In this document: positions 9,310 to 39,436 of the stretch, one piece after another
Layout: each line of letters starts with the position of its first letter
Numbering within the stretch: the first letter of the stretch is position 1
IMG/VR virus record: IMGVR_UViG_3300044213_000051
Location: 23,218 to 87,217 of that record
Source: a virus
Reading direction: 5' to 3' (one strand)
Length of the DNA: 64,000 bases
The notes under the pieces: generated by a model
The model's database searches: none
Told to the model about the DNA's origin: nothing
What the model saw: only the letters and a program-made list of their open reading frames with translations
Translations under genes and position numbers: made by a program

Positions 9310-10359
9310 TTACTTGATGTTGTTAAATACATGCATGTAGCGTTTAACAGAAGGGTCAATTACTTTCTCTTCAGTTAAAGTTTCTACAGGAGTGTCAGTT
9401 ACTACAGAACTAACTGTAGCTGCCTTGGTAGTGAAATAATTTTCACGAATTGTCTGAACTTTTGCAGCAAAAGTATCAGCGTCCTCATATGACAATTCTT
9501 CAGCTAGACCTTTTAGTTTCTCAACTTGAGTATCAGACAAACCAACACATGCTTCGCTTACTAGTTCAGCACGCTTCATTTCGCTGATTGATTTTTTCAA
9601 TTCAACGTTAGAAGCTAATTGTTCGTTTAACTTTTCTTCAAGTTCAGCAACACGATCTTCCATCTCAGCCATTACATCGAACTTCTCTTCAGGCATATCG
9701 ATATAATGTTCTTCGAAAAGACCTTTAAGTCCAGAAACGAATCCTTCGAGGATTTCGGACTTCATACCACGCTCAAGGGCTAATTCATTCTGTGCAATCC
9801 ACTGCTCGACAACGTAGTCGAGATATCCATCAACTTTTTCAACAAGACCCTCTTGATTCTGTGCCGCAGCTTCTTCTAGCTTGGCTTCGAATTCTTCTTC
9901 GATTCGTGCAACTTCAGCTTTTACACGAGCCATAACCGCAGCTTCAAAAATAGTAGCAGCTTTGGTTTTAAATTCTTCAGTAAGTTCTTCGCCATTCAAC
10001 ATAGCGTCGATATCTTCTTTCATACCAGCGATATGGCTTGCTTCTGGAGCAGACTCTTTATCGTTAGCTTTGTTCTTTTTCTTAGCTTGACCTTTAGCGA
10101 TTGCTTCGTCTTGGTCGCGAGCATCGTTACGAGCATTGTCAGGGTTTGCGTTTTCGCCTTGGGCTTTAACAGCGTCACCTTGACGAATAACATCTTCAGA
10201 TGGTTCGTTTTCGCTATTGCCAGTTGGCTCAGATTTGTTCATTTTTTCCAAATGATTTTCTTCTGCAGCAGAGGCATTAGCTGTTACGGGATTTGATTCG
10301 TCCAACTGGGCTTTGCGAGACTCAGCAAGCAACTCAGCGATTTTTTGTTCGATTGACAT
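9310..10359 (-). CDS. gp22: Prohead core scaffold protein
   Basis: LTEEFKTKAATIFEAAV, VDGYLDYVVEQW, coiled-coil and acidic; between gp21 and gp23. Confidence 0.93.
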   Translation of the reverse strand: MSIEQKIAELLAESRKAQLDESNPVTANASAAEENHLEKMNKSEPTGNSENEPSEDVIRQGDAVKAQGENANPDNARNDARDQDEAIAKGQAKKKNKANDKESAPEASHIAGMKEDIDAMLNGEELTEEFKTKAATIFEAAVMARVKAEVARIEEEFEAKLEEAAAQNQEGLVEKVDGYLDYVVEQWIAQNELALERGMKSEILEGFVSGLKGLFEEHYIDMPEEKFDVMAEMEDRVAELEEKLNEQLASNVELKKSISEMKRAELVSEACVGLSDTQVEKLKGLAEELSYEDADTFAAKVQTIRENYFTTKAATVSSVVTDTPVETLTEEKVIDPSVKRYMHVFNNIK

Positions 10360-10392
10360 CGTTTTCTCCTAACTGGATAAGTTCTATTTAAT

Positions 10393-10400
10393 TATTTATT
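10393..10400 (-). promoter_or_regulatory. Late promoter (AATAAATA) for gp22-gp23
   Basis: Intergenic late-box variant, followed by an AGGAG SD. Confidence 0.65.
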
Positions 10401-10402
10401 AT

Positions 10403-11056
10403 TTATCTGATTTTACTCAGGAAATTTTGGAAAGCACGAATTTTGGCTTCCTGTAAATTCTTAGAAGATGCGTTTCTAATTAAAGTCTTCGCTTCCTCAA
10501 TATTTCTCTCCACAAACTTTCCATCAACGAATACCCATTCTTTATTCTCCATAATACCACGTACGTAAGCATCTGGAGCAGATGGGTCGGCAACGATGTC
10601 TGCTGCAGTAGACAGCATAAAATCGTCCTGAACGACTTGGACACCTTCTTTGTTTAATCGAAGAGAACCTAGTGCTCGTGAAGACACGCCAAGATTCGCA
10701 CCACCTTCTAAAAGACCTTTAGCGATTTGACCCATTGGAGTATCTAAAATTTTGGCACGACCGATATAGTTAGTGCCTTCTTTACGCAAAGAAGTGATTA
10801 GGTGAGAAACACGATCTAAGTTAATAGATGGGTTTTCTGGATGACCCAATTCGCCGTAAGCACGGTTCTTCTCTACATATTCTTTAATGTAACGATCAAC
10901 TTCACGATCCATAACTGATTCTGGATACATGCGTCCGTTACGATTTTTTAATTCTGATTGAAGGAAAACACCTTCAATAAAATATTGTTTTGGTTTGCCT
11001 AACTTTTCTTCAACGATTACGTTGGAAGTTTCGACAACTTCTCTAATCAGTTTCAT
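10403..11056 (-). CDS. gp21: Prohead protease
   Basis: NRNGRMY, GELGHP, GVSSRALGS, DIVADPSAPDAYV. Confidence 0.96.
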   Translation of the reverse strand: MKLIREVVETSNVIVEEKLGKPKQYFIEGVFLQSELKNRNGRMYPESVMDREVDRYIKEYVEKNRAYGELGHPENPSINLDRVSHLITSLRKEGTNYIGRAKILDTPMGQIAKGLLEGGANLGVSSRALGSLRLNKEGVQVVQDDFMLSTAADIVADPSAPDAYVRGIMENKEWVFVDGKFVERNIEEAKTLIRNASSKNLQEAKIRAFQNFLSKIR

Positions 11057-11058
11057 TT

Positions 11059-11520
11059 TTATACCTTACCTGGAGAACCAGACTGAGTTGTTGAAGCACC
11101 AACGATAGTTGGATCATCGTAAGCACCGTAAGTAGCATTCTCAACTGTAGTATCCCAACCAGCAACTTTACGTAGTACTAGATAACCATTAACTGCTTTA
11201 GCAGCATCATTAACGATAACGATGTCAGCAGTGTTGTTTGTTGTATCAGACCAACCATTCTGAGTAAAATCGAAAAATGGTGCGTTTTCTGGAGCAGCTG
11301 AAATAATGTTCTTACCACTACGAGTAATTCTAGTGCCAGCCCCAAGTTCACCTGTGATCAAAACTTTAGTGATGTTCACTGTTGGCGCATCAGAGTTTCT
11401 TGCCTGAGTTGCGCAACCTAATGACGCAAGAGAAATAGTACCAGATTCAGCAGCGACTGTGTCGAAGTGAATAACTGTCTCTTGGTTTGTATTTTTAATT
11501 GTTGTGAATAAAACAGCCAT
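11059..11520 (-). CDS. Hypothetical head-cluster protein
   Basis: 153-aa ORF tightly packed between prohead genes, with structural-gene-like codon usage. Confidence 0.7.
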   Translation of the reverse strand: MAVLFTTIKNTNQETVIHFDTVAAESGTISLASLGCATQARNSDAPTVNITKVLITGELGAGTRITRSGKNIISAAPENAPFFDFTQNGWSDTTNNTADIVIVNDAAKAVNGYLVLRKVAGWDTTVENATYGAYDDPTIVGASTTQSGSPGKV

Positions 11521-11524
11521 TTGA

Positions 11525-12067
11525 TTATTCCTTAATCTTATTGATTACATAGAAAAAATTATTTTTTGATTCTCTCATGTATTCAACGACTTCTAAATTG
11601 TTTGCCAATAAATTATTTAGCTCTTGTTGTGTTTCTTCATTTATTGCAACAACAGTTCCATCAGCTAAAACATAATCAAGTTTATTTTCTATGATCGAAT
11701 CCAATTTGTTTAAAGCACGAATTTTTTGAACAACTGGATCTACTGTAAATAGTTTAGAAGAAGCAAGCTCTACGTATGATTCAATTAACTGTTCTGTAAC
11801 TTTAATGTCGTAATATTCTTTAATGATAGTAGCGATACGAGATTCAGACATCTCTTCGTATATTTCCTGAGCGACTTCTTTTTCTAAATTTTCTGAGTAA
11901 TGTTTATTCTTAACAAATATTCTTGCTTCTTCTAACTCTTTAAACTTTGTCTCTTCACCATCAATTAAGATAGAACCTTCGGTAGTCTTTTCAATAAGAC
12001 TACCAAAAGAACGGATCGACTCAGCGATTCCTGTTTTTAGAGATTTCTTAAACTGGGTAAAATACAT
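11525..12067 (-). CDS. Hypothetical head-cluster protein
   Basis: 180-aa ORF translationally coupled to the upstream gene. Confidence 0.7.
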   Translation of the reverse strand: MYFTQFKKSLKTGIAESIRSFGSLIEKTTEGSILIDGEETKFKELEEARIFVKNKHYSENLEKEVAQEIYEEMSESRIATIIKEYYDIKVTEQLIESYVELASSKLFTVDPVVQKIRALNKLDSIIENKLDYVLADGTVVAINEETQQELNNLLANNLEVVEYMRESKNNFFYVINKIKE

Positions 12068-28642: not shown

Positions 28643-31336
28643 TTAGTATGTGCCACCATCAATTGTAAAGCCATCAAGAGTAGAAGTGGAAGCACCAGAT
28701 CCAGTAATGTTACCAGAAGCACTGATGTTACCAGTAAATGACGAAGTAGAAGTTACGCTTAATGTTCCACCAATACTTGCGTTACCAGAAGTAGTAACAG
28801 TAGTACCACTGAAGCTAGAAGAAGTAATTGTTTTGTTACTTAAAGTTTCTGTTCCAGCTAATGTAGCAAGAGTACCGCTATTAGGTAATGTTACAGATGT
28901 AGAACCTGTAGCTGTTAACGAGATTCCATAAGCACCAATAGTAGTAAACGCACCAGCAGTGTTAATATTACCACCAAGAGTGATAGTATTTGAGCCGTTG
29001 TTTACACCAGTACCACCATAAGTAGCACCAAGAACAGTACCTTGCCAAGTACCAGTAGTAATAGTACCTAGAGTATTGATAGATGTTTGACCAACATATG
29101 TTGATTTAATTTGTAGTTGGTTAGCTACGATAGCAAGTGTTGTATTATCAACAACAGCACTTAACGTGTTACCAGATTTAGATAAACCAGCACCAGCAGT
29201 AATCTCACCAGCACCAGAGAATTGAATCCAGTTTTGAGCATTAGTATCAACAGTAATTGTTGCTACATCGGCAGAGAACTCAGCTAGAACATAACCAGAG
29301 TTAGCGTTCTGTGTACCTTCTGTGGTAAACACGAACATACCTGGAGTAACTGTACCAGTAGTAGTTGCACCGTCAGCATCAGTAGCACGAGTCAATACCC
29401 AGTTAGTAGAAACAGAACCAATACTAGTAACAACGTAAATACCATTATCTTTAGTAGTTGTCTGATCTTTAACAAGAACACGGTCACCAACAACAGCTGG
29501 AACAGAGTCAATGGTCAACGCAGCTTGAGTGCCAGAGTTAGTAAGTGTTTTACCTGCACCAGAACCAGAAGCAGTTGCAGTTAAGTTTGAACCAGTAGTC
29601 GCTAAACGAACTGGGTATTTAATATCTAAACCTGATTTTAGACCATCAACATATGCTTTGTTAGCAGCGTCAGTAGCTTGAGTTGGAGTTCCAACAGAAG
29701 TAATTCTGGCACCAGCAACGTCAACAGTACCAGTACCAGTCGGTACTAAGTTTACGTTATTATTGCCAGAAGCAGCAGTAATTGATAGGCTACCAGAAGC
29801 ACCAGTTAAACTTGTTACAGTTGCAGCACCAAGAGTTGGTGTAGTGAAAACTGGGCTAGTTGTTAAAGCAACGGTATTTCCAGAACCAGAGGTGCCAGTA
29901 ATTGAAGTTCCATTAACTTTTAATACGTTGCCAGTTGCAGCAGTATCAAATGTCTTGTTAGTGAACGTATCAGTTGTTGCTTTACCAACCAAAGTATCAG
30001 TTGTTGCTGGTAGAGTTAATGTACCAGAAGCTGTTGCTGATGCTTGTAGGGTTGTTTGACCAGTTGTAGAACCACCATAGTTAATACCACCAGTAATAGA
30101 TGGTGTTGCAGACAACATAACAACAGCACCAGAACCAGTGTAACTATTAATTTGGTTGCCATTGATTTTTAATACGTTACCAGTTGCGGCAGTATCAATT
30201 GTCTTGTTAGTTAGGGTATCGGTAGTTGCTTTACCGATTAAAGTATCAGTAGCAGCTGGTAGAGTTAAAGTGTTTGTTCCTGCAGTGGCAGAAGCAACAA
30301 CAGTAATCTGACCAGAAGTAGATCCCTTAAAGATTGCGCTGGTACCAAGAGTTACAGCACCAGTTAATGTCGAAGTACTAGAAACAGATAAAGTACTTGA
30401 TAAAGTAGTTGCGCCAGTTACACCTAGTGTACCTGCGATTGTTGTATTACCAGAAGCAGTATCTACTTGGAATGTAGTAGAAGTACCGTTATTGATTGTT
30501 AAATATTCAGTTCCAGGTGTTGCAGAACCAGATAATGTTAAACCATTCTGGAATGTTACACCACCAATAGAAGTTTCAGTTCCAGTAAGAACTAAGTTGC
30601 CGCCAACATACAAGTTACCAGCAACACCAACGCCACCAGAAACAACCAATGCGCCAGTAGAAGTTGATGTAGAAGCAGTAGTATTAAGAACTGCTAGTTT
30701 AGTATTATCCCAAGTACCAACTTGAGTAGAAGTGCCAGAAGAACCTGAATAGAAGTGAAGAACATCATCACCAGCACCTGGAGAAGTTTCTGCGATGATA
30801 TATGTTTTACCATCAACAGAACGAACACCACCTAGTGATGTCCAGTTAGTGCCATTATAACCTTCGAACTGTACGTTAGTAGTATTGAAACGAACAGCTG
30901 CAGTTACTGCTGGACCTTGCTGAGCAGTAGTACCAGAAGGAATAACTAATCCGTTTGTTCCAGAGACAGAAACGTAACCAGTACCATTAGGTGTTAAAAC
31001 GATGTTACCGTTAGTATTCTGTGCTTGAATAGTGTTACCTGATAGGTATAAGTTACCTACGTACCACTTATCGATTGTACCAGTTGCGGAAAGAACTGGA
31101 ATAGATGATTGGTTTGTTGTTAATGTACCAGCAACTGATGCGTCAACTAAACCTGTGTAGTATTGACCACCAATGATAATGTGGTTTGCAGCGTTACCGC
31201 TGGTTTCTGTGCCCATACCGATGTATAAGCGATTACCACCTGTACCTGCAAACGCTGAATATGCTAATTCACCTGCGGCAAGGGTACTTGGATTCCCTGC
31301 GGTAGACGAACGTTTAATTCTGATTGTTGATGCCAT
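28643..31336 (-). CDS. Long fibre/virion structural protein
   Basis: IRIKRS...GELAYS N-terminus; DAANKAYVD, GDRVLVKDQ..NGIY..W.LTRATDAD; ends IDGGTY. Confidence 0.82.
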   Translation of the reverse strand: MASTIRIKRSSTAGNPSTLAAGELAYSAFAGTGGNRLYIGMGTETSGNAANHIIIGGQYYTGLVDASVAGTLTTNQSSIPVLSATGTIDKWYVGNLYLSGNTIQAQNTNGNIVLTPNGTGYVSVSGTNGLVIPSGTTAQQGPAVTAAVRFNTTNVQFEGYNGTNWTSLGGVRSVDGKTYIIAETSPGAGDDVLHFYSGSSGTSTQVGTWDNTKLAVLNTTASTSTSTGALVVSGGVGVAGNLYVGGNLVLTGTETSIGGVTFQNGLTLSGSATPGTEYLTINNGTSTTFQVDTASGNTTIAGTLGVTGATTLSSTLSVSSTSTLTGAVTLGTSAIFKGSTSGQITVVASATAGTNTLTLPAATDTLIGKATTDTLTNKTIDTAATGNVLKINGNQINSYTGSGAVVMLSATPSITGGINYGGSTTGQTTLQASATASGTLTLPATTDTLVGKATTDTFTNKTFDTAATGNVLKVNGTSITGTSGSGNTVALTTSPVFTTPTLGAATVTSLTGASGSLSITAASGNNNVNLVPTGTGTVDVAGARITSVGTPTQATDAANKAYVDGLKSGLDIKYPVRLATTGSNLTATASGSGAGKTLTNSGTQAALTIDSVPAVVGDRVLVKDQTTTKDNGIYVVTSIGSVSTNWVLTRATDADGATTTGTVTPGMFVFTTEGTQNANSGYVLAEFSADVATITVDTNAQNWIQFSGAGEITAGAGLSKSGNTLSAVVDNTTLAIVANQLQIKSTYVGQTSINTLGTITTGTWQGTVLGATYGGTGVNNGSNTITLGGNINTAGAFTTIGAYGISLTATGSTSVTLPNSGTLATLAGTETLSNKTITSSSFSGTTVTTSGNASIGGTLSVTSTSSFTGNISASGNITGSGASTSTLDGFTIDGGTY

Positions 31337-32010: not shown

Positions 32011-32652
32011 ATGGACAATATTCAAGCACCCCAAAATGGAACAGGTTCAGCGACTGAAGTTCCATCAGATAAACAGTTAGTTACAAAAACTTTCGAAAAA
32101 CTGTTATTCCCAACCGATATTAAAAGTTTCCAAATTTCGGATTTTGAGGATTTTCAACAGAAACTTTTGACATTTATTCAAAGTGAAGAATGTCAACCAA
32201 AAGATTCTTTAGAGCCGATCGACCCGATTTTTAAAGAAGATGACAGTATCTTCAAACTTCGCGAAATTGTATACTCTATTTGTGAACAATTACCAGAGTT
32301 TAATATACCAGAGCTTCAATACACACCAACTATTATTGGCTCACAGATATTTTATCAACAACAATACGAACACATTCCACCGCATGCGTATGAATTTGTT
32401 CCGTTGGTATTTTCGTTCATTTTGTCATGCCCAGAATCACCCCCAGTAACTTATTATCCAGATACTCGTGGAGCAGTTCAAACAGTTAGAGATACAGTAT
32501 CTCAAAACTTAGTTGCTACTAGTTTCTCTCTGCGTGGATGGCAAGGTGAAGTTATTGTCACACCTGGATATCTACAACGTTATGTGGAAACAAACTTGTC
32601 TGAAAGAACTTACGTTGTTCTTAATGTCAAAATTGGTTTTGCTTCCTATTAA
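32011..32652 (+). CDS. 2OG-Fe(II) oxygenase-fold protein, degenerate metal ligands
   Basis: Layout LFPT.I...PPHAY...YYPDTRG...GEVIVTPGYLQRYVETN resembles the TIGR02466-type family. GGAG SD and own late box. Confidence 0.55.
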   Translation: MDNIQAPQNGTGSATEVPSDKQLVTKTFEKLLFPTDIKSFQISDFEDFQQKLLTFIQSEECQPKDSLEPIDPIFKEDDSIFKLREIVYSICEQLPEFNIPELQYTPTIIGSQIFYQQQYEHIPPHAYEFVPLVFSFILSCPESPPVTYYPDTRGAVQTVRDTVSQNLVATSFSLRGWQGEVIVTPGYLQRYVETNLSERTYVVLNVKIGFASY

Positions 32653-33700
32653 ATTTAGCAGTTCGAGGAATGTAGCGTAAGCTATAATCTTCATATAAAA
32701 ATAACCAAGTCGGTATGGGGTTTCCTAAATTGGAAACCCCTTTTGGTTTGTTCCAAGCATAGTAAGAATCTCCACTATACTCCTCAATCAATTGACGCAT
32801 AACCCATCTGTGAGTTAGTGCGTTTCCAACTTCTTTCGTAAATGGTTCTTTGGTTGTAATAACATAACGCTGAAAATCGTCAGTATTAAAAAAGTGATAT
32901 ATGTTATCTTGACGTTTCGTACTAACCATTGACGCAAACTGAGAAGTATACCAATCATAGTTAAAAATACACCACCATCTTAAATCACGCAAAGTTTCAA
33001 TTTTTTTAGGACTTGCCTTTATTGACGGAAGAATAAACTCGTGTAGCTCTGGGTTTATACATTTGGTGTAATCCATCAGTGGATCTGGACCTTTGAACTG
33101 ATGATGGAAAAATGATATATCAGTTTTCACAGTTCCAGTTGTAAAGTCGTCTGTCGGACCAAACAGTTGGTTACCAAAAAACCCTGTTACAAAAATCTCA
33201 TCTTCAGGACAGTCATCAAACTCTCTTCTGGAAGTAACCTTAATTTTATGGTTTACGCCAGATGGTAAGATAACTTTATCAAACATCGAGCCAGATTCTA
33301 ATACAGAACTGTAAGTTCCATAAACAGTAATTCTTGATGGATCTTTCGCGTAGTGAATCAGCGCAAACAGAACCAATGTGCTGTCAATACCACCACTCCA
33401 AACAACGTTAATTTTCTTACCTGTTGCAAGAAGCTCTTCGCAACGTTCTTTAACTATCTGCTCGAACGACTTGTTAAAACCTTCTGGAATTTCTGGTATC
33501 TGTAGCAACCCACCCTTCATATTAAGGTAATGTGGAGTATTACCAGTTCTATCAAACACAACATTCAAATTCATGTTATGTTTCTCATAGAAGTTAAACA
33601 ACTCTATAGCATTATCCGATAGATCGTCAGCAATCGTATCTGGATATTGAGCCATTACTTGTTTAACGTACCCTGTATTATAAAATAAAATTTGTTTCAT
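32627..33700 (-). CDS. PP-loop (N-type) ATP pyrophosphatase, asparagine-synthetase C-domain-like
   Basis: VVWSGGIDST PP-loop; IFVTGFFGNQLFG resembles the AsnB TG.G.DE.FG motif; no glutaminase domain. Confidence 0.75.
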   Translation of the reverse strand: MKQILFYNTGYVKQVMAQYPDTIADDLSDNAIELFNFYEKHNMNLNVVFDRTGNTPHYLNMKGGLLQIPEIPEGFNKSFEQIVKERCEELLATGKKINVVWSGGIDSTLVLFALIHYAKDPSRITVYGTYSSVLESGSMFDKVILPSGVNHKIKVTSRREFDDCPEDEIFVTGFFGNQLFGPTDDFTTGTVKTDISFFHHQFKGPDPLMDYTKCINPELHEFILPSIKASPKKIETLRDLRWWCIFNYDWYTSQFASMVSTKRQDNIYHFFNTDDFQRYVITTKEPFTKEVGNALTHRWVMRQLIEEYSGDSYYAWNKPKGVSNLGNPIPTWLFLYEDYSLRYIPRTAKFNRKQNQF

Positions 33701-33710
33701 TATATCCTCA

Positions 33711-33738
33711 AAATAAAAATGGGGAGCTTAGGCTCCCC
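33711..33738 (-). terminator. Intrinsic terminator-like hairpin after the TRAP SBP gene
   Basis: Minus strand GGGGAGC-CTAA-GCTCCCC followed by ATTTTTATTT. Confidence 0.7.
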
Positions 33739-33740
33739 AA

Positions 33741-33758: not shown

Positions 33759-34706
33759 TTAATGTAATTGAATCTTGCTTACAAGACCTGGAGTGAAGTA
33801 GTCAGCAAACTTCTCGTAAACTGCAGAAGTAACTTCTTTGAATTTCTTCTGTTCAGTTTCATCCATGCGAACAACCATAACACCCTTTTCTTCACATTCA
33901 GCTAGAATGTTTGGAATGTCAGCAACTGATTCACGACGCTCTGCACGAGCAGCGTTGAAAGCAGCAGTAGCCATAATTTCTTGAGTTTCTTCATCGAACT
34001 GAGCCATGAAGTCTTTGTTAACAATAATAGAAGTCAAGAACAAGCTGTGGGCAGTGTCATTAACAACCTTGAAAGACTTATATTGGTCAAGTGGGAAAAT
34101 ACGAACGTAAGTAGATTCGCCAGCAGCAATTTCGCCACGATCAGCAAATTCGTTCATTTCTTCTAGAGCGATGTGCTCTTTTGGTTCTGCTCCAAGCAAC
34201 TTAAATGTTTCAACAGCAACAGGGCTACGGCTAGTACGAACAGCTTGACCTTTCCAAGCATCTACAGTGTCAGCCTTAAAGTTAGCTGGAACAACACGAT
34301 AGCCACCAGAGTAAGTGAAAGACATAGCGTGGATATTACTATTCTTAGAAACACCAGCTAACAACTCAGCACCAACTTCACCTTCCAAAACAGCGTCAGC
34401 ATGGGCGTGGTCACGGAATAGGAATGGTAGGTCTAAAGCGTGTAGATCTTTGTTGTAATCAGCCAACCAAGTAGTGTAGATGTGGCTCATTTCGATAGTG
34501 CCATCATCGATCATCTGCATTAGGTCGTTCTTGCTGATTTTCTTGCCATCGTTATACTTAGCTGCATAGTCTGATAAAGAAAGAACTTCAATGTTAAACA
34601 TACCATTGGTTTTTTCGTTAACTTCTTTAGCAAAGTGCTCAGCAACTTTCAAAAACAAGCCAATAGGCTCGTGGGCGATAACCCATTTTACATGTTTTTG
34701 TTCCAT
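33759..34706 (-). CDS. TRAP transporter solute-binding protein (DctP family), no signal peptide
   Basis: FAKEVNEKTNG, LDLPFLFRD..HA..VL.G.VG, GGYR, WKGQAVR; N-terminus lacks a hydrophobic leader. Confidence 0.85.
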   Translation of the reverse strand: MEQKHVKWVIAHEPIGLFLKVAEHFAKEVNEKTNGMFNIEVLSLSDYAAKYNDGKKISKNDLMQMIDDGTIEMSHIYTTWLADYNKDLHALDLPFLFRDHAHADAVLEGEVGAELLAGVSKNSNIHAMSFTYSGGYRVVPANFKADTVDAWKGQAVRTSRSPVAVETFKLLGAEPKEHIALEEMNEFADRGEIAAGESTYVRIFPLDQYKSFKVVNDTAHSLFLTSIIVNKDFMAQFDEETQEIMATAAFNAARAERRESVADIPNILAECEEKGVMVVRMDETEQKKFKEVTSAVYEKFADYFTPGLVSKIQLH

Positions 34707-35033
34707 TTAAATCTCCTTTTTGTTTCTATGTAGTAGGTACCCAAGTTTAGTTAGGTCCAATATCCAGCTTTCTTCACTACTATTTATCTTATGGTAGATT
34801 ACTGGAATGTTATTTTCGACAATTATTCTTATATATTTATGAACAACTGCTTTTTGCTCCTCACTTCCAACCAACTTAAATTCTGGGATCTGGATAGATA
34901 CATTGTTGTTTTGAAACGACTCTGTAGTTTCTGAATTATGATAGAAAATCCTAGAGATAGTATGTCTATCATAATTCGATCCATATCTTGGAAATTTATT
35001 AACTTCCCAAATATAACAATCTAAAAAAGCCAT
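34707..35033 (-). CDS. Hypothetical protein
   Basis: ORF filling the gap between rSAM and SBP genes; likely start MAFLDCYIW at 35033. Confidence 0.65.
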   Translation of the reverse strand: MAFLDCYIWEVNKFPRYGSNYDRHTISRIFYHNSETTESFQNNNVSIQIPEFKLVGSEEQKAVVHKYIRIIVENNIPVIYHKINSSEESWILDLTKLGYLLHRNKKEI

Positions 35034-35034
35034 A

Positions 35035-36504
35035 TTATTGAATAGTCGTTGGAATGCTAACAACTGGAATGTTTACAGGTTTGCGAACTTTCCAAGATTT
35101 CTGTGTACCACCAGATTTCACAAAATCAATGTCAATAACAGGTTGGCTTGTTTGTCCGTCGAATCTGATTTTTTCGCCTTGTATTTCAACCAAAACCAAT
35201 CCATCAGTCATGATAAACATAGAAGCTGCCAGTATTGCCAAATTATACCAATAGAGATTCTCGCATGCTTGACTCCAATATTGATCTTCTAAGAACAGGC
35301 ACGCACCTTGACATAGTTGAACAACTGGACAAGAAGGGCATTCTGCACGAGTTGACCAGTGATATGAGTTCTTCAAACGAACATCTTCTAACTGATCGAT
35401 ATTACCAAGGTTGTGTTTAGTTAGAGAAGAAGTGTTTTGGCAAGTAGTTACGTTACCTTTCATATCGATGGCAATCGTATCTTCTTTATCCATACCACAC
35501 TTTTGACCAACAACAGTAGCTGGTCTTTGGTAAACTAACGATTCAAAAAACCCTTGGATTTTCTGATTAATTGTCCAACTAAACTGATTCTTAAACTCAA
35601 TAGTTTCCCAGAACAACGAATGTAGAATTTCTTTCTTCTCATCTGGCGTTTGAATAGAGTGAGCCATGCCACTATCATCATATGGTAACATCAATTCTTC
35701 TGTTGTTACCTGCAATTCAGTCTGTCCAATTTCAACATAATCATATCCAAGATCTTTACGATTTAATTTTTCTTGAATAAAATCACGAACAGCTGCAATT
35801 GAAACATTCTGACGTGTCAATACACAGTTAAACGTAAATCTCATCTGACCCATTGTTTTTAAAGCATAAACAACAGCATCTTTTGCTTCTGGTTCATCCA
35901 AAGGATCTGGTCCACGGTTCTGAGCATGCAGTGGTCCATCGTGAGACATACCAATAGAGAATCCCATTTGATTGAACCAATCAATCTTTTCTCGTGTTAA
36001 TAGTGAGCCATTAGTCACCATCATAAACTGCGCATTAGGATAAACCTTACGAATCTTTTCCGCCAATGGTTTTAGAGTTTTCCAATAAACCATTGGTTCA
36101 CCACCCCAAAATTCCAAACGGAATCTATCATAAGTGCTAAACTTAAAATTATTTTTAATCTTTTGAACAAGTTCTTCAGCATCCTCTGGACCACCAACTG
36201 GATCGTGTGGTTGATGTGCCTGATTGCAATATGAGCAAGCGTAGTTACACTTAAGACCCATAGTAATTTTTAGAGTTGCTGGTTTATCTGACTTCTTACC
36301 CCAGAGATCTGGGTTATGTGGATTGGTTATTTTAGCAGGTTCCCATTTTTTAGCAGTTACCTGATATTCTAATCCGTTTGAAATGTGAGTCAATGTAGGT
36401 TTAGTGCCATCCGATTCCCAATAAACTTCAGAAGTCATTGGATCATACACTAATGTTTCTTTCACATCATTTGATCCTTGTAGGATCAACTTATATTTAC
36501 TCAT
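35035..36504 (-). CDS. Radical SAM enzyme with SPASM domain
   Basis: CNYACSYC (CX3CX2C), FWGGEP, VTNGSLL, SHDG; SPASM cysteines CG...GNVTTC and CPSCPVVQLCQGAC...C. Confidence 0.93.
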   Translation of the reverse strand: MSKYKLILQGSNDVKETLVYDPMTSEVYWESDGTKPTLTHISNGLEYQVTAKKWEPAKITNPHNPDLWGKKSDKPATLKITMGLKCNYACSYCNQAHQPHDPVGGPEDAEELVQKIKNNFKFSTYDRFRLEFWGGEPMVYWKTLKPLAEKIRKVYPNAQFMMVTNGSLLTREKIDWFNQMGFSIGMSHDGPLHAQNRGPDPLDEPEAKDAVVYALKTMGQMRFTFNCVLTRQNVSIAAVRDFIQEKLNRKDLGYDYVEIGQTELQVTTEELMLPYDDSGMAHSIQTPDEKKEILHSLFWETIEFKNQFSWTINQKIQGFFESLVYQRPATVVGQKCGMDKEDTIAIDMKGNVTTCQNTSSLTKHNLGNIDQLEDVRLKNSYHWSTRAECPSCPVVQLCQGACLFLEDQYWSQACENLYWYNLAILAASMFIMTDGLVLVEIQGEKIRFDGQTSQPVIDIDFVKSGGTQKSWKVRKPVNIPVVSIPTTIQ

Positions 36505-36570: not shown

Positions 36571-37602
36571 TTAAACCAGTGTAATCATTAACTCAGCAAA
36601 AGTTAATTGTGGTCCACAGTTTAATTTAAATTTGATAAAATCACCAGCTGAAAGTTTGTTGTCAACGATAACGTCTTCGTATCCAGCAAATCTTGAGGGA
36701 AGATTATTTAGACCAAGATATGTGAAATCTGGAGCTACTTGACCAGTTCGTACCCCAGAAGTTAATCGAGTTTTAGATGGTGTTCCATTTACACAATTTA
36801 TATCGAATGTTACTGGTAAAGTTTTATCTGGTATTCCACTCTGATATACAACTCTAAACTTATATTCAGGATTGGTCGGTAAAGAAATTGCAAATTGTCC
36901 GCCAGCAAATTTTTGTGGATCTACCCCAGGCATAACGAATGTTGATGGAACCATACTTAAAGGGACTTCAGTGGTAACAACATTATTATTAGCGTCAAGA
37001 ATTTGGAAAATGATATTTACTATATAGTTCATAGCGATATCTTTAATTCTGTCTTTGGTAGACATTTCAACTGGTGCTGGTGTAGTAGCAGAGTCTATTA
37101 CTGTTGCGTGTGGTGATCCATCTTCAATAACATGGAATGTTAAAACACTAGCAGAAAAATCAGTTACTGTTCCATAAAATGATTCAATTTGAAAACATGG
37201 AAACAATTTTTCGCTTTGTCTTGCTTGAATGTCACTCCAAATAGTATGATGAGATGTACTAGAATTTATTAGTGTTTGAGTATACGATAGAACATTAAAT
37301 GGGTCGTTGATCGTTTCAGTTTCAGCGTCAAACTCAACGATCCAAGCCATATTGTCTGTATACTGAACAAAATCTGCTGGAGTGAACGCTCTTGTAGCTA
37401 CAGTTGTATATGTAATTGGAGCGTCTACAGCAGAATTTAAGTCTGGTTTAACTAGTTTATCAACAGTAAGGTTGATTGTTTTAGTACTATCAACATATCC
37501 CATTGTTACTCTATAGTTAGAATTAACCGCAAGAACACCCTGTGGGTATGATGTTTGACTAGGATCAAATCCTACGATTGGTGTTTTATAGATTTTATAC
37601 AT
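36571..37602 (-). CDS. Hypothetical protein (343 aa, beta-rich)
   Basis: ORF directly downstream of the Cys-rich gene; no recognisable motif. Confidence 0.75.
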   Translation of the reverse strand: MYKIYKTPIVGFDPSQTSYPQGVLAVNSNYRVTMGYVDSTKTINLTVDKLVKPDLNSAVDAPITYTTVATRAFTPADFVQYTDNMAWIVEFDAETETINDPFNVLSYTQTLINSSTSHHTIWSDIQARQSEKLFPCFQIESFYGTVTDFSASVLTFHVIEDGSPHATVIDSATTPAPVEMSTKDRIKDIAMNYIVNIIFQILDANNNVVTTEVPLSMVPSTFVMPGVDPQKFAGGQFAISLPTNPEYKFRVVYQSGIPDKTLPVTFDINCVNGTPSKTRLTSGVRTGQVAPDFTYLGLNNLPSRFAGYEDVIVDNKLSAGDFIKFKLNCGPQLTFAELMITLV

Positions 37603-37615
37603 TTATATTCCCTAA

Positions 37616-37987
37616 TTAGCAGTTACAGTTGCATGCGCAGTTACAGTTGCAATTACAGTTGCAATTACAGTTTACGCGATAGTAACGGAACATACCAAGA
37701 GACTGTTCTTGAGAATCGTGACGCATACCAGCACCATTATATGCACCATTGGCGAAGATGTTAATACGCCAGTCTGTAGTATATATGTTTAAGGGGATTG
37801 GTCCTGGATTACAGTTACCACAGTTACAGTTACAAGCTGTGTTACATGCGTTACATGCGCAGTTCCAGTTACAGTTACCGTTAGAATCATTCACATAACG
37901 TGCGCCAACGTCACCCTGCCATCCCCAGAAAATACCGTTAAGGTCGGTACCACCCGAATTTCTAAATCCAACCGCTGCTACTGGCAT
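37616..37987 (-). CDS. Cys/Asn-repeat protein; candidate rSAM/SPASM substrate or fibre-tip protein
   Basis: 123 aa, 17 Cys in two tracts; GGAG SD within the end of the upstream fibre gene. Confidence 0.8.
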   Translation of the reverse strand: MPVAAVGFRNSGGTDLNGIFWGWQGDVGARYVNDSNGNCNWNCACNACNTACNCNCGNCNPGPIPLNIYTTDWRINIFANGAYNGAGMRHDSQEQSLGMFRYYRVNCNCNCNCNCNCACNCNC

Positions 37988-37988
37988 A

Positions 37989-39179
37989 TTATTTCTCCAA
38001 GTTTTCTAATCGAGTATTTAACTCTTTAATAGTTTCGTTTTGTTCTTTAATTGCTTCAATCAGTAAACCAACGATGTTAGCATAGGCAACAGATTTGAAT
38101 CCCTCGGAGTCTTCTCCGACTAAGAAAGGCATAACTCTTTCTACTTCCTGGGCGATTAAACCGATTTCTGGTTTACCTTGTTTCAGATAGGAAACGCCAC
38201 GCAATTGTAAAACAGTGTCTACGGCATTATTTAGCGTTTGTACGTTCTCTTTTAATCGTTGGTCAGAAGAAATCTGGAATCCGCCAGCATAAACAGTTCC
38301 ACCAACACTTTCGTTACCATTAACAGTATTGCTTCCTGTAAAGGTGTTATTAGCGTTTAGACGTGGAATATTAGAACCAACGTTAATTGTTGGATTACCA
38401 GCAACACCATCTGGATTGCTAATAGTAATATCTGATCCAGCAGCCAAAGTTCTTGGAACGATTGTGTTAGTTGCTGTTCTGGCAACCAAGCCAGTTGTAG
38501 ATAAGTTAGCGTAAGCTGTTAACTCTGCGCTGAATGGTTGAACGTCTGTACCAACACGAGTACCTAAAACTGCCTGAGCACCAGAAGTCGATGTTGTGGC
38601 AATAAGAGATCTGGCATAAGAAGTTAGCGATGCTGTTGTTAGGGTATTAGCACCATTAAAATAAACAACCTGATCAGCTGCACCAGAAATCCCTGATAAT
38701 GAGTCTAGTTTTGTGTTCCACGCTTGGACGTTTGTTCCGATAATCAATCCAAGATTGGCACGAGCATTTGACGCATTAGTTGCGCCAGTACCACCAACGG
38801 ATACAGGAATAGAACCACCGCTAATTGAAATTGAACCAACCGACAAAGAACCAGTAAATGTAGCATTTACACCAGTAATGTTATTTGTTGAGGTTAAATT
38901 GTAGAATGTAGAGCTACCTGTAGAATCGCGAGTAACTACAGAACTGTAATTTGGACCAGTTGGTAATGATGGATTGGATTGCAATCCTTGTAACAAATCA
39001 GCGTCTAAACCAGATCCAACACCATCAACAGTCTCCAATTGCGTAATAATGTTATGCGCATTAAAGTCTGTGATTAATACTCTTGTCTGAATATCTGCGT
39101 TTAGGTTTGTGAAGTTGGCATCAACTTCATTATTTGTTAGGGGTGAACCCTTAGATTGTCTTAAAACGAGTGTCGCCAT
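37989..39179 (-). CDS. Tail fibre with C-terminal intramolecular chaperone (S74-like)
   Basis: LRQSKGSPLT..EVDANF N-terminus, DG.GSGLDADLL, GGTGA..A..ARANLGL, SSDQRLKENV...GLIAQEVE...VAY..IVGLLIEAIKE. Confidence 0.88.
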   Translation of the reverse strand: MATLVLRQSKGSPLTNNEVDANFTNLNADIQTRVLITDFNAHNIITQLETVDGVGSGLDADLLQGLQSNPSLPTGPNYSSVVTRDSTGSSTFYNLTSTNNITGVNATFTGSLSVGSISISGGSIPVSVGGTGATNASNARANLGLIIGTNVQAWNTKLDSLSGISGAADQVVYFNGANTLTTASLTSYARSLIATTSTSGAQAVLGTRVGTDVQPFSAELTAYANLSTTGLVARTATNTIVPRTLAAGSDITISNPDGVAGNPTINVGSNIPRLNANNTFTGSNTVNGNESVGGTVYAGGFQISSDQRLKENVQTLNNAVDTVLQLRGVSYLKQGKPEIGLIAQEVERVMPFLVGEDSEGFKSVAYANIVGLLIEAIKEQNETIKELNTRLENLEK

Positions 39180-39193
39180 TGTTTTCCCTTAGT

Positions 39194-39436
39194 TCAGCGA
39201 TCTTTAATTAACAGCAAAAGCATCTGTTTAATCTCAGAAATATCTGCCTTTATATTATTTATTTGTTCTGTATGTTGAGAAAGAACCTCTGATTCGCGTA
39301 AACGCTTCTCGTGTTCTTCTTTCATTTTTAGATAATTTTCATACTCGGTCTTGTTAGTATTTAGGATTGCTCCTGTACTTGTATCTCTAACAAGACCCGT
39401 ATGACCCTCAACCTTCAAAAATTTAACATTATGCAC
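39194..39436 (-). CDS. Small conserved hypothetical protein
   Basis: KVEGH..LVRD..TGAILN plus coiled coil; commonly follows the large virion protein in T4-like phages. Confidence 0.75.
   Translation of the reverse strand: MHNVKFLKVEGHTGLVRDTSTGAILNTNKTEYENYLKMKEEHEKRLRESEVLSQHTEQINNIKADISEIKQMLLLLIKDR

Follow-up and report, generated by a model that had tools for sequence, protein, structure and literature searches.

Organisation of the locus

The window, that is, the whole stretch of 64,000 nucleotides that was analysed, contains a block of genes on one strand. It runs from an 80-aa virion protein through a tail fibre with a Peptidase_S74 domain, a 123-aa protein termed here the NC protein, a 343-aa protein (p343), a radical SAM (rSAM)/SPASM enzyme and a 118-aa protein to a DctP-like protein and a PP-loop ATPase (Table 1). 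The NC protein consists of an N-terminal GFRxSxGxDL motif, an internal Asn-Cys tract (tract 1), a middle segment rich in aromatic residues and Gly, and a C-terminal (Xaa-Cys)9 tail (tract 2). The original prediction had counted 17 Cys in two Asn-Cys tracts, 8 in the first and 9 in the second, and reading of the ORF confirmed this count; the protein also contains 25 Asn. Its ATG is located 1 nt past the stop codon of the fibre gene, with a GGAG 7 nt upstream. Tract 1 carries an NCNCGNC motif which resembles the NCNCGxFNC motif preceding the tails of distant fibres, and by its sequence tract 2 is the tail common to the whole tail and enzyme system described below.

Table 1. Genes and tracts at the locus, with positions in the window.
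Feature	Position	Strand	Basis or detail
80-aa virion structural protein before the fibre	39194..39436	-	phrog_473, 5.1e-20
396-aa tail fibre with C-terminal Peptidase_S74 intramolecular chaperone	37989..39179	-	PF13884, 1.2e-13; tail-fibre PHROGs
NC protein, 123 aa	37616..37987	-	ORF; ATG start, TAA stop; 29 homologues aligned
Tract 1, N38-N60	37808..37876	-	8 Cys, mostly Asn-Cys
Tract 2, N106-C123	37619..37672	-	nine Xaa-Cys units up to the stop codon
343-aa partner (p343, famA-like), multi-beta-sandwich	36571..37602	-	AF2 model, BFVD, hhalign
489-aa radical SAM/SPASM enzyme	35035..36504	-	Pfam Radical_SAM; phrog_1802, 1.8e-63
118-aa protein, lineage-specific	34707..35063	-	ORF, locus comparison
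DctP-like TRAP solute-binding homologue, accessory, lineage-specific	33759..34706	-	PF03480, 3.1e-41
357-aa PP-loop (SGGIDS) ATPase, accessory	32627..33700	-	weak similarity to asparagine synthase and LarE
213-aa convergent gene	32011..32652	+	kept in all family loci, including L018

The order 80-aa protein, S74 fibre, NC protein, p343 and rSAM is the same, as far as the DNA reaches, in each of the 26 IMG/VR loci that encode an NC homologue. Across loci, identity to the window proteins was 68-89% for the rSAM enzyme, 73-90% for the DctP-like protein, 46-73% for the NC protein, 44-68% for the fibre and 27-37% for p343.

The NC protein had no match in Pfam, NCBIfam or PHROG, none among GenBank phages by tblastn and no usable match in the ESM Atlas. 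An AF2 model built with 29 sequences had a pLDDT of 43 and was uninformative. In the 87-kb genome record, DNA that could encode NCNC was found in the NC ORF and at a single other site (window 29571-29582). The latter is not read as Asn-Cys, since the 897-aa protein that spans it has no Cys.

Conservation of the Asn-Cys tracts

Homologues of the NC protein were collected from a protein collection (10) and from 26 IMG/VR loci, giving 29 distinct sequences, and both tracts were kept in these 29 homologues. The mean pairwise identities of the two tracts were 0.78 and 0.84, compared to 0.60 for the N-terminal part and 0.57 for the middle. The expected picture thus held qualitatively: the tracts and the N-terminal GFRxSxGxDL are conserved, and the middle varies more. 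The middle segment, for which the original prediction had expected variability, is not hypervariable; it has a mean identity of 57% and six invariant residues. The C-terminal tail has nine units in 17 of the 20 complete distinct IMG/VR sequences, and a few have 10-11. Among 16 homologues, the codon differences within the tracts were 106 synonymous versus 24 non-synonymous, and no Cys was lost.

The alternation of synonymous codons had earlier been taken as a sign of protein-level selection. The alternation was seen (TGT 11 and TGC 6, AAC 18 and AAT 7), but it forms an imperfect 12-bp repeat by itself (TRF: period 12, 3 copies, 95% matches, 37637-37672), and alternation alone therefore cannot exclude slippage. 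It is the comparative data, i.e., the tract identity, the unit number and the synonymous excess, that argue for selection on the protein. A chance low-complexity ORF, or a functionless repeat generated by slippage, would agree with the imperfect 6/12-bp repeat in the tract DNA. It is contradicted by the 29 conserved homologues, by the 106 synonymous against 24 non-synonymous differences, by the fixed unit number, and by the ribosome-binding site and the start 1 nt past the fibre stop. The conservation data refuted this reading, which we regard as having practically no chance of being correct. As judged from these comparisons, the NC ORF encodes a conserved protein under selection and is no product of slippage.

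The family is narrow. A profile search of 1.84 billion representatives yielded three NC clusters and one extra match, the 199-aa metagenomic protein P0012, in which the N-terminal motif of the NC protein recurs. P0012 starts with GFRxSxGxDLxxxF three times in tandem, has no Cys tracts and is otherwise unrelated; the GFRxSxGxDLxxxF unit may be a docking or fibre repeat. When the tracts were masked, a phmmer comparison of the NC protein with the other tailed proteins found its own family only. Longer, fused forms of the NC body were looked for and not found, which is weak evidence. Since the NC body without its tracts matches only its own family and the bodies of the other tailed proteins are unrelated, the tail behaves like a portable tag.

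The radical SAM/SPASM enzyme

The 489-aa rSAM enzyme is encoded two genes downstream of the NC protein on the same strand. Its CxxxCxxC motif (C86, C90 and C93) is invariant across the family alignment, and so are all seven Cys of the SPASM domain (C336, C355, C389, C392, C398, C402 and C414). The N-terminal extension of about 75 residues is conserved as well. The SPASM domain model TIGR04085 (36.5 bits, cut-off 27) was the sole NCBIfam cut-off that the enzyme reached. It matched every peptide-maturase family of NCBIfam at about 1e-18, all below cut-off. The best of these was PapB (2.1e-18; 66.6 bits versus a cut-off of 340). Neither the SCIFF maturase cut-off (47.5 versus 425) nor that of CcpM (53.8 versus 500) was reached, nor were those of QhpD (TIGR03906, 60.6 versus 453), CrpC (TIGR04463, 48.4 versus 525) and the anaerobic sulfatase-maturating enzymes (anSME; TIGR03942, 65.7 versus 349, 3.8e-18).

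The best full-length relative of solved structure in a single-sequence search was CteB (5WGG; 3.2e-10, residues 80-403). In a PDB profile search, CteB (2.9e-14) and anSME (7e-15, full length) were equally distant from the enzyme. For the catalytic-site proximity profiling that compares sacti- with ranthi-synthases, six CteB positions have been given (PMC10288494). A RiPP recognition element (PqqD/RRE, Pfam) was not detected in the enzyme or its neighbours, and the ORFs and Pfam matches of the cassette include no protease, leader protease, transporter or exporter.

Co-occurrence of the tail and the enzyme

The enzyme belongs to phrog_1802. A search of IMG/VR with a profile of ten diverse enzymes found this rSAM family on at least 577 stretches, and 184 relatives came from bacterial genomes. 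The enzymes of the distant loci are 34-47% identical to that of the window. In two cultured phages, full-length homologues (35-38% identity) are encoded directly behind tail-fibre genes. These are Achromobacter phage JWF, which has lambda-like tail genes (tail assembly protein I, central tail fibre J), and Ralstonia phage RSP15, assigned to the Ackermannviridae in its record. The fibre and the rSAM enzyme are gp028 and gp030 in JWF, and ORF048 and ORF045 in RSP15. The fibre of JWF carries NCNCDCNCNCSC directly N-terminal to a Hint domain, and the C-terminal end of the RSP15 fibre reads NCQCGN. Beyond these two phages, the upstream ORF ends in the same type of tract in ten distant loci. In the first set of loci, including JWF and RSP15, a tailed upstream ORF was found in 11 of 11; the tail of locus L046 was located in the complete 71.7-kb genome.

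A forward test was then made on new loci. With at least 3 kb of upstream DNA, 46 of the 47 new distant viral loci had a fibre-like upstream ORF on the same strand with an NCNCNC... tail. The tailed proteins of these 46 loci are 190-730 aa long, and their consensus is NNCNCGxFNC[YR][ST]NCNCNC[ADN]C..., at or near the protein end. The relatives in bacterial genomes come from freshwater and soil Alpha- and Betaproteobacteria, Verrucomicrobia and Planctomycetes, and their loci are evidently prophages; the tail was present in 56 of the 60 with enough upstream DNA. Overall, about 107 distant loci of phages and prophages were compared; the tail is present in about 95% of them and was not detectable in five. 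For the reverse test, IMG/VR was scanned for DNA encoding NCNCNCNC, and those ORFs were considered that reach 90 aa, carry the tract at most 20 aa from the C-terminus and have sufficient flanking DNA. An rSAM gene was found nearby for about 27 of the 28 qualifying ORFs. The scan also returned many short spurious ORFs, which lay in AT-rich contigs of giant viruses.

The same tail was found in 169 distinct proteins. Cys is fixed in it, and the X position is N (71.6%), A (15.4%), D (8.1%) or Q (1.1%), together 96%. The tail ACACACNC of locus L047 is without a strict NxxC register. The tract is either 0-12 residues away from the stop codon or followed at once by a Hint domain of about 160-210 aa, whose Cys or Ser nucleophile it adjoins. 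The latter arrangement was seen in L001 (4844-6295), in L074, L088 and L102, where the tract is about 160 residues before the end, and in the prophage loci L291, L297, L298, L302 and L308. After self-cleavage by a Hint domain in this position, the fibre would end with the tract. Most other phages have the tract at the end of the fibre polypeptide and not on a separate protein; small free-standing tailed proteins after S74-bearing fibres occur in three other lineages (L048, L053 and L054). Three phage types that are unrelated to each other have the cassette embedded among structural genes. The window locus fits this cassette, with a tail that starts with NCNCNC and has at least three units, an rSAM of the same family downstream, and a fibre block with a famA-like partner in between. 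A different arrangement was observed at L055 (1672-4012), where a 138-aa protein that has several Cys tracts is followed by rSAM paralogues of 340 and 446 aa in tandem.

The 343-aa neighbour

The fastest-evolving gene of the cassette is p343, with 27-37% identity versus 68-89% for the rSAM. Its product matched no known family. Its AF2 model was confident (pLDDT 80.7, pTM 0.82). The top BFVD match of the model was a 271-aa viral protein (E 4.7e-13) whose length equals that of RSP15 ORF047 (famA), the link between the two being by length only; other uncharacterised caudoviral proteins also matched. Direct comparison of p343 with famA by hhalign gave a weak match over the C-terminal 55 aa only (E 6e-4). 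The C-terminal domain is Ig/PapD-like (Z 6-8), and a fold search against the PDB returned only generic Ig/PapD/MG-like sandwiches at Z 6-8, which are not diagnostic. From alignment and predicted structure, p343 is a fast-evolving partner with a conserved fold. Such divergence with a kept fold is typical of receptor-binding parts or of tip-specific chaperones, and candidate roles for p343 are those of a chaperone or presenter for the tip and of a distal adhesin.

Proposed function of the tail

The tail and the enzyme are the only components common to all loci, and the simplest reading is therefore a substrate and its enzyme. We propose, with a probability of about 55%, that the NC protein is a free-standing fibre-tip module and that its Cys tracts are substrates of the rSAM enzyme, most likely for thioether cross-links. 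The part of this proposal which concerns the tail as an rSAM substrate is, from the gene and sequence patterns, quite probable. Given that the tail is a substrate, the chances that the product is a thioether are about even. From the gene order we infer that the NC protein is in the virion and contacts the fibre.

The NC protein would be a tail-fibre component of the virion, a separate version of the Cys-tailed tip that other phages carry on the fibre polypeptide. The S74 chaperone of the preceding fibre is expected to be cleaved off, so that a C-terminal tail could not stay on that fibre. As the S74 fibre would lose its C-terminus by self-cleavage, the tag probably must sit on a separate polypeptide, and the "adhesin position" of the NC protein would be explained without a gp38-like function. 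Late in infection, the rSAM/SPASM enzyme would act on the exposed (Asn-Cys)n tracts. It would most probably abstract a hydrogen atom from a neighbouring Asn, Ala or Asp, and this residue would then be joined to the sulfur of a Cys that is bound at an auxiliary Fe-S cluster. Repetition along the tract would give a series of thioethers which may stiffen or covalently lock the fibre tip and would also remove oxidisable thiols. The p343 protein, encoded between substrate and enzyme, would be a conserved partner that may act as a tip chaperone or presenter or as a distal adhesin.

A thioether product is favoured by four observations: Cys is the invariant residue; 96% of the X positions are N, A, D or Q, which is the acceptor set of NxxcB; there are precedents for repeated thioethers on repeated motifs and for the cross-linking of whole proteins; and (NC)n carries the NxxC register throughout. 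In the most specific form of the proposal, phages of many lineages would convert the (Asn-Cys)n tag into thioether rings that overlap like a ladder, each from Asn i to Cys i+3, and the NC protein would form a cap with two tags that is cross-linked on the tip of the fibre; we offer this picture tentatively and think it somewhat doubtful.

The original prediction had likened NCNC to the NxxC motif cross-linked by NxxcB and had suggested a cross-linked or metal-zippered scaffold. The rSAM gene two genes away, together with the tail in about 95% of about 107 loci, gave the idea of enzymatic Cys cross-linking much firmer support than it had at first, but membership of the enzyme in the NxxcB family was not found.

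Alternative readings of the tail

The tail could instead bind metal. Its alternating Cys would line one face of a strand, and a trimer would hold Zn, Fe, Cu or an Fe-S-like cluster, so that the tip would be a metal-zipped needle and the rSAM would act elsewhere or on few positions. Ligands at every second residue could line a trimer axis, as in the His-x-His iron needle at the tip of T4 gp37. The tail is 50% Cys with the Cys-x-Cys spacing of metallothioneins, its unit number is tightly kept within the family (9, with few 10-11), and small X residues would also suit tight packing. The similarity to metallothioneins is one of composition, as the NC protein has no match to them or to anything else in Pfam. 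Metal binding has also been raised by the authors of the CrpA study for their own substrate (PMC13692751). Binding of metal would leave a dedicated rSAM/SPASM gene in about 95% of loci, found in both search directions, unexplained, and exposed clusters of free thiolates would be labile in oxic water. We regard this reading as unlikely, and cross-linking of the tail by the enzyme is preferred.

Oxidation of the anSME type would convert Cys into formylglycine or another oxidised product, giving a reactive, aldehyde-rich tip for, e.g., covalent attachment or condensation with Asn. The anSME enzymes act on whole proteins and are as close to the window rSAM as any thioether synthase (3.8e-18 in NCBIfam, 7e-15 in the PDB profile search). 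On the other hand, their recognition motif C/S-x-P/A-x-R is absent from the tracts of the NC protein, the TIGR03942 score is far from its cut-off (65.7 versus 349), and we know of no precedent for dozens of adjacent aldehydes. Such a product appears improbable. It is still less probable that the NC protein is no part of the virion and serves as the precursor or scaffold of a released, phage-made RiPP directed against the host or competitors, or as a discarded assembly factor. A small protein beside an rSAM/SPASM gene and accessory enzymes does have the layout of a RiPP cluster. In most phages, however, the same tail ends a fibre protein of 200-730 aa, the cassette has no leader protease or exporter, and it lies inside structural blocks in three unrelated phage types. 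A thioether-forming enzyme acting on a tag at the fibre tip is our preferred reading.

Comparison with known systems

One near counterpart is the streptococcal RiPP system NxxcB/NxxcA, in which the Cys sulfur is joined to the beta-carbon of Asn. Both systems have an rSAM/SPASM enzyme, with Asn and Cys as the actual or putative partners, and every Asn followed by a further unit in (NC)n has a Cys at +3, i.e., in the NxxC register. NxxcB uses Asn natively as the acceptor and tolerates Ala, Gln and Asp, and Ser or Thr cannot replace the Cys (PMC9389541). The natural variation of X in the tails (N, A, D and Q, 96%) equals this accepted set, and Cys is fixed. NxxcA differs in being a short, leader-bearing peptide with one cross-link, whereas here 3-11 tandem units end fibre proteins of 70-730 aa. 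Membership at the sequence level was not found, and some tails lack the NxxC register.

The maturases PapB, acting on PapA (freyrasin), and CteB, acting on SCIFF, install thioethers repeatedly on repeated Cys motifs. The window enzyme shares with them a complete SPASM domain with seven Cys, PapB being its best NCBIfam match and CteB (5WGG) its best solved relative. It differs in that its scores are far below their cut-offs and no RRE was detected, and in that its putative substrate is a virion protein and theirs a secreted peptide.

Thioether cross-linking of whole proteins by rSAM/SPASM enzymes is described for CrpC/CrpA and QhpD/QhpC (PMC13692751). As is proposed for the locus studied here, a dedicated SPASM enzyme is encoded beside a Cys-rich protein substrate, and the cross-links serve protein structure and not natural-product synthesis (PMC13692751). 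QhpC and CrpA differ from the NC protein in being cellular, the one a subunit of a bacterial dehydrogenase and the other an archaeal protein to which no role is assigned. Neither has a link to phages or fibres, and their motifs are different, that of CrpA being CPLVL.

A parallel to gp37-gp38 of the T-even phages had also been drawn, with the NC protein in the place of the gp38 adhesin. The parallel stands for the position, a small gene behind a distal fibre gene. It fails for the rest: the NC protein has no Pfam, PHROG or NCBIfam match, and thus no homology to gp38, its middle is not hypervariable, and the fastest-evolving gene here is p343. To our knowledge, no rSAM enzyme is involved in T-even fibre assembly. 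The self-cleaving fibre modules are a further likeness, Peptidase_S74 being on the fibre before the NC gene and Hint directly following the tail elsewhere; these modules account for the placement of the tail but not for its function.

In the literature on rSAM enzymes and on Cys tails of phage fibres, no description of an rSAM enzyme acting on phage fibres was found. By analogy, the enzymology would be SPASM chemistry of the RiPP type, with the fibre tips of virions as a new class of substrate and with a tag that is also new. If this is correct, the tip that contacts the host would contain a covalently stapled structural element of a new kind, and a virion protein would for the first time be known to undergo RiPP-type post-translational modification, so that this rSAM chemistry would extend to such proteins. 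Host range is decided by the tips of tail fibres, and radical cross-linking would add a maturation step that is missing from accounts of phage assembly. It would also explain phrog_1802, a widespread and unannotated phage rSAM family. A short portable tag (NCNCNC...) with one enzyme is a possible protein-stapling tool, and the cultured carriers JWF and RSP15 make the hypothesis directly testable.

Accessory genes of the cassette

The other genes of the window cassette are lineage-specific, with the exception of one distant homologue of the PP-loop ATPase. This homologue (34% identity) follows the rSAM gene in the distant locus L047 (7598-8602), and the PP-loop ATPase may be an optional tailoring enzyme. 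The DctP-type TRAP solute-binding homologue, 73-90% conserved, is located inside a phage structural and tailoring block. The convergent 213-aa gene encodes an invariant EHxPxHxYE stretch and has no family match; a PDB profile search with it found nothing. A relation of this gene to the 2OG oxygenases of distant loci was considered and rejected (hhalign probability 0.3%).

In the close relative L018, the NC protein, a p343-like protein, the rSAM enzyme and the 213-aa gene are kept. In place of the 118-aa, DctP-like and PP-loop genes, L018 has (at 9457-11812) a member of an unknown 280-aa family together with two genes that resemble fatty-acid desaturases, and families B and C of the L018 locus recur in distant loci. 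Further loci also encode 2OG-Fe(II) oxygenases and desaturase-like enzymes and in this resemble tailoring clusters. Exchange of the accessory tailoring genes seems to be modular.

The T4 late-promoter box TATAAATA was found at one site in 64 kb, which is below the chance expectation, and a scan for sigma-70 promoters and terminators was uninformative except for one feature. A GC-rich hairpin with a T-run on both strands lies at window positions 33720-33739, between the DctP-like and PP-loop genes, and is likely the terminator that closes a fibre-to-DctP transcript.
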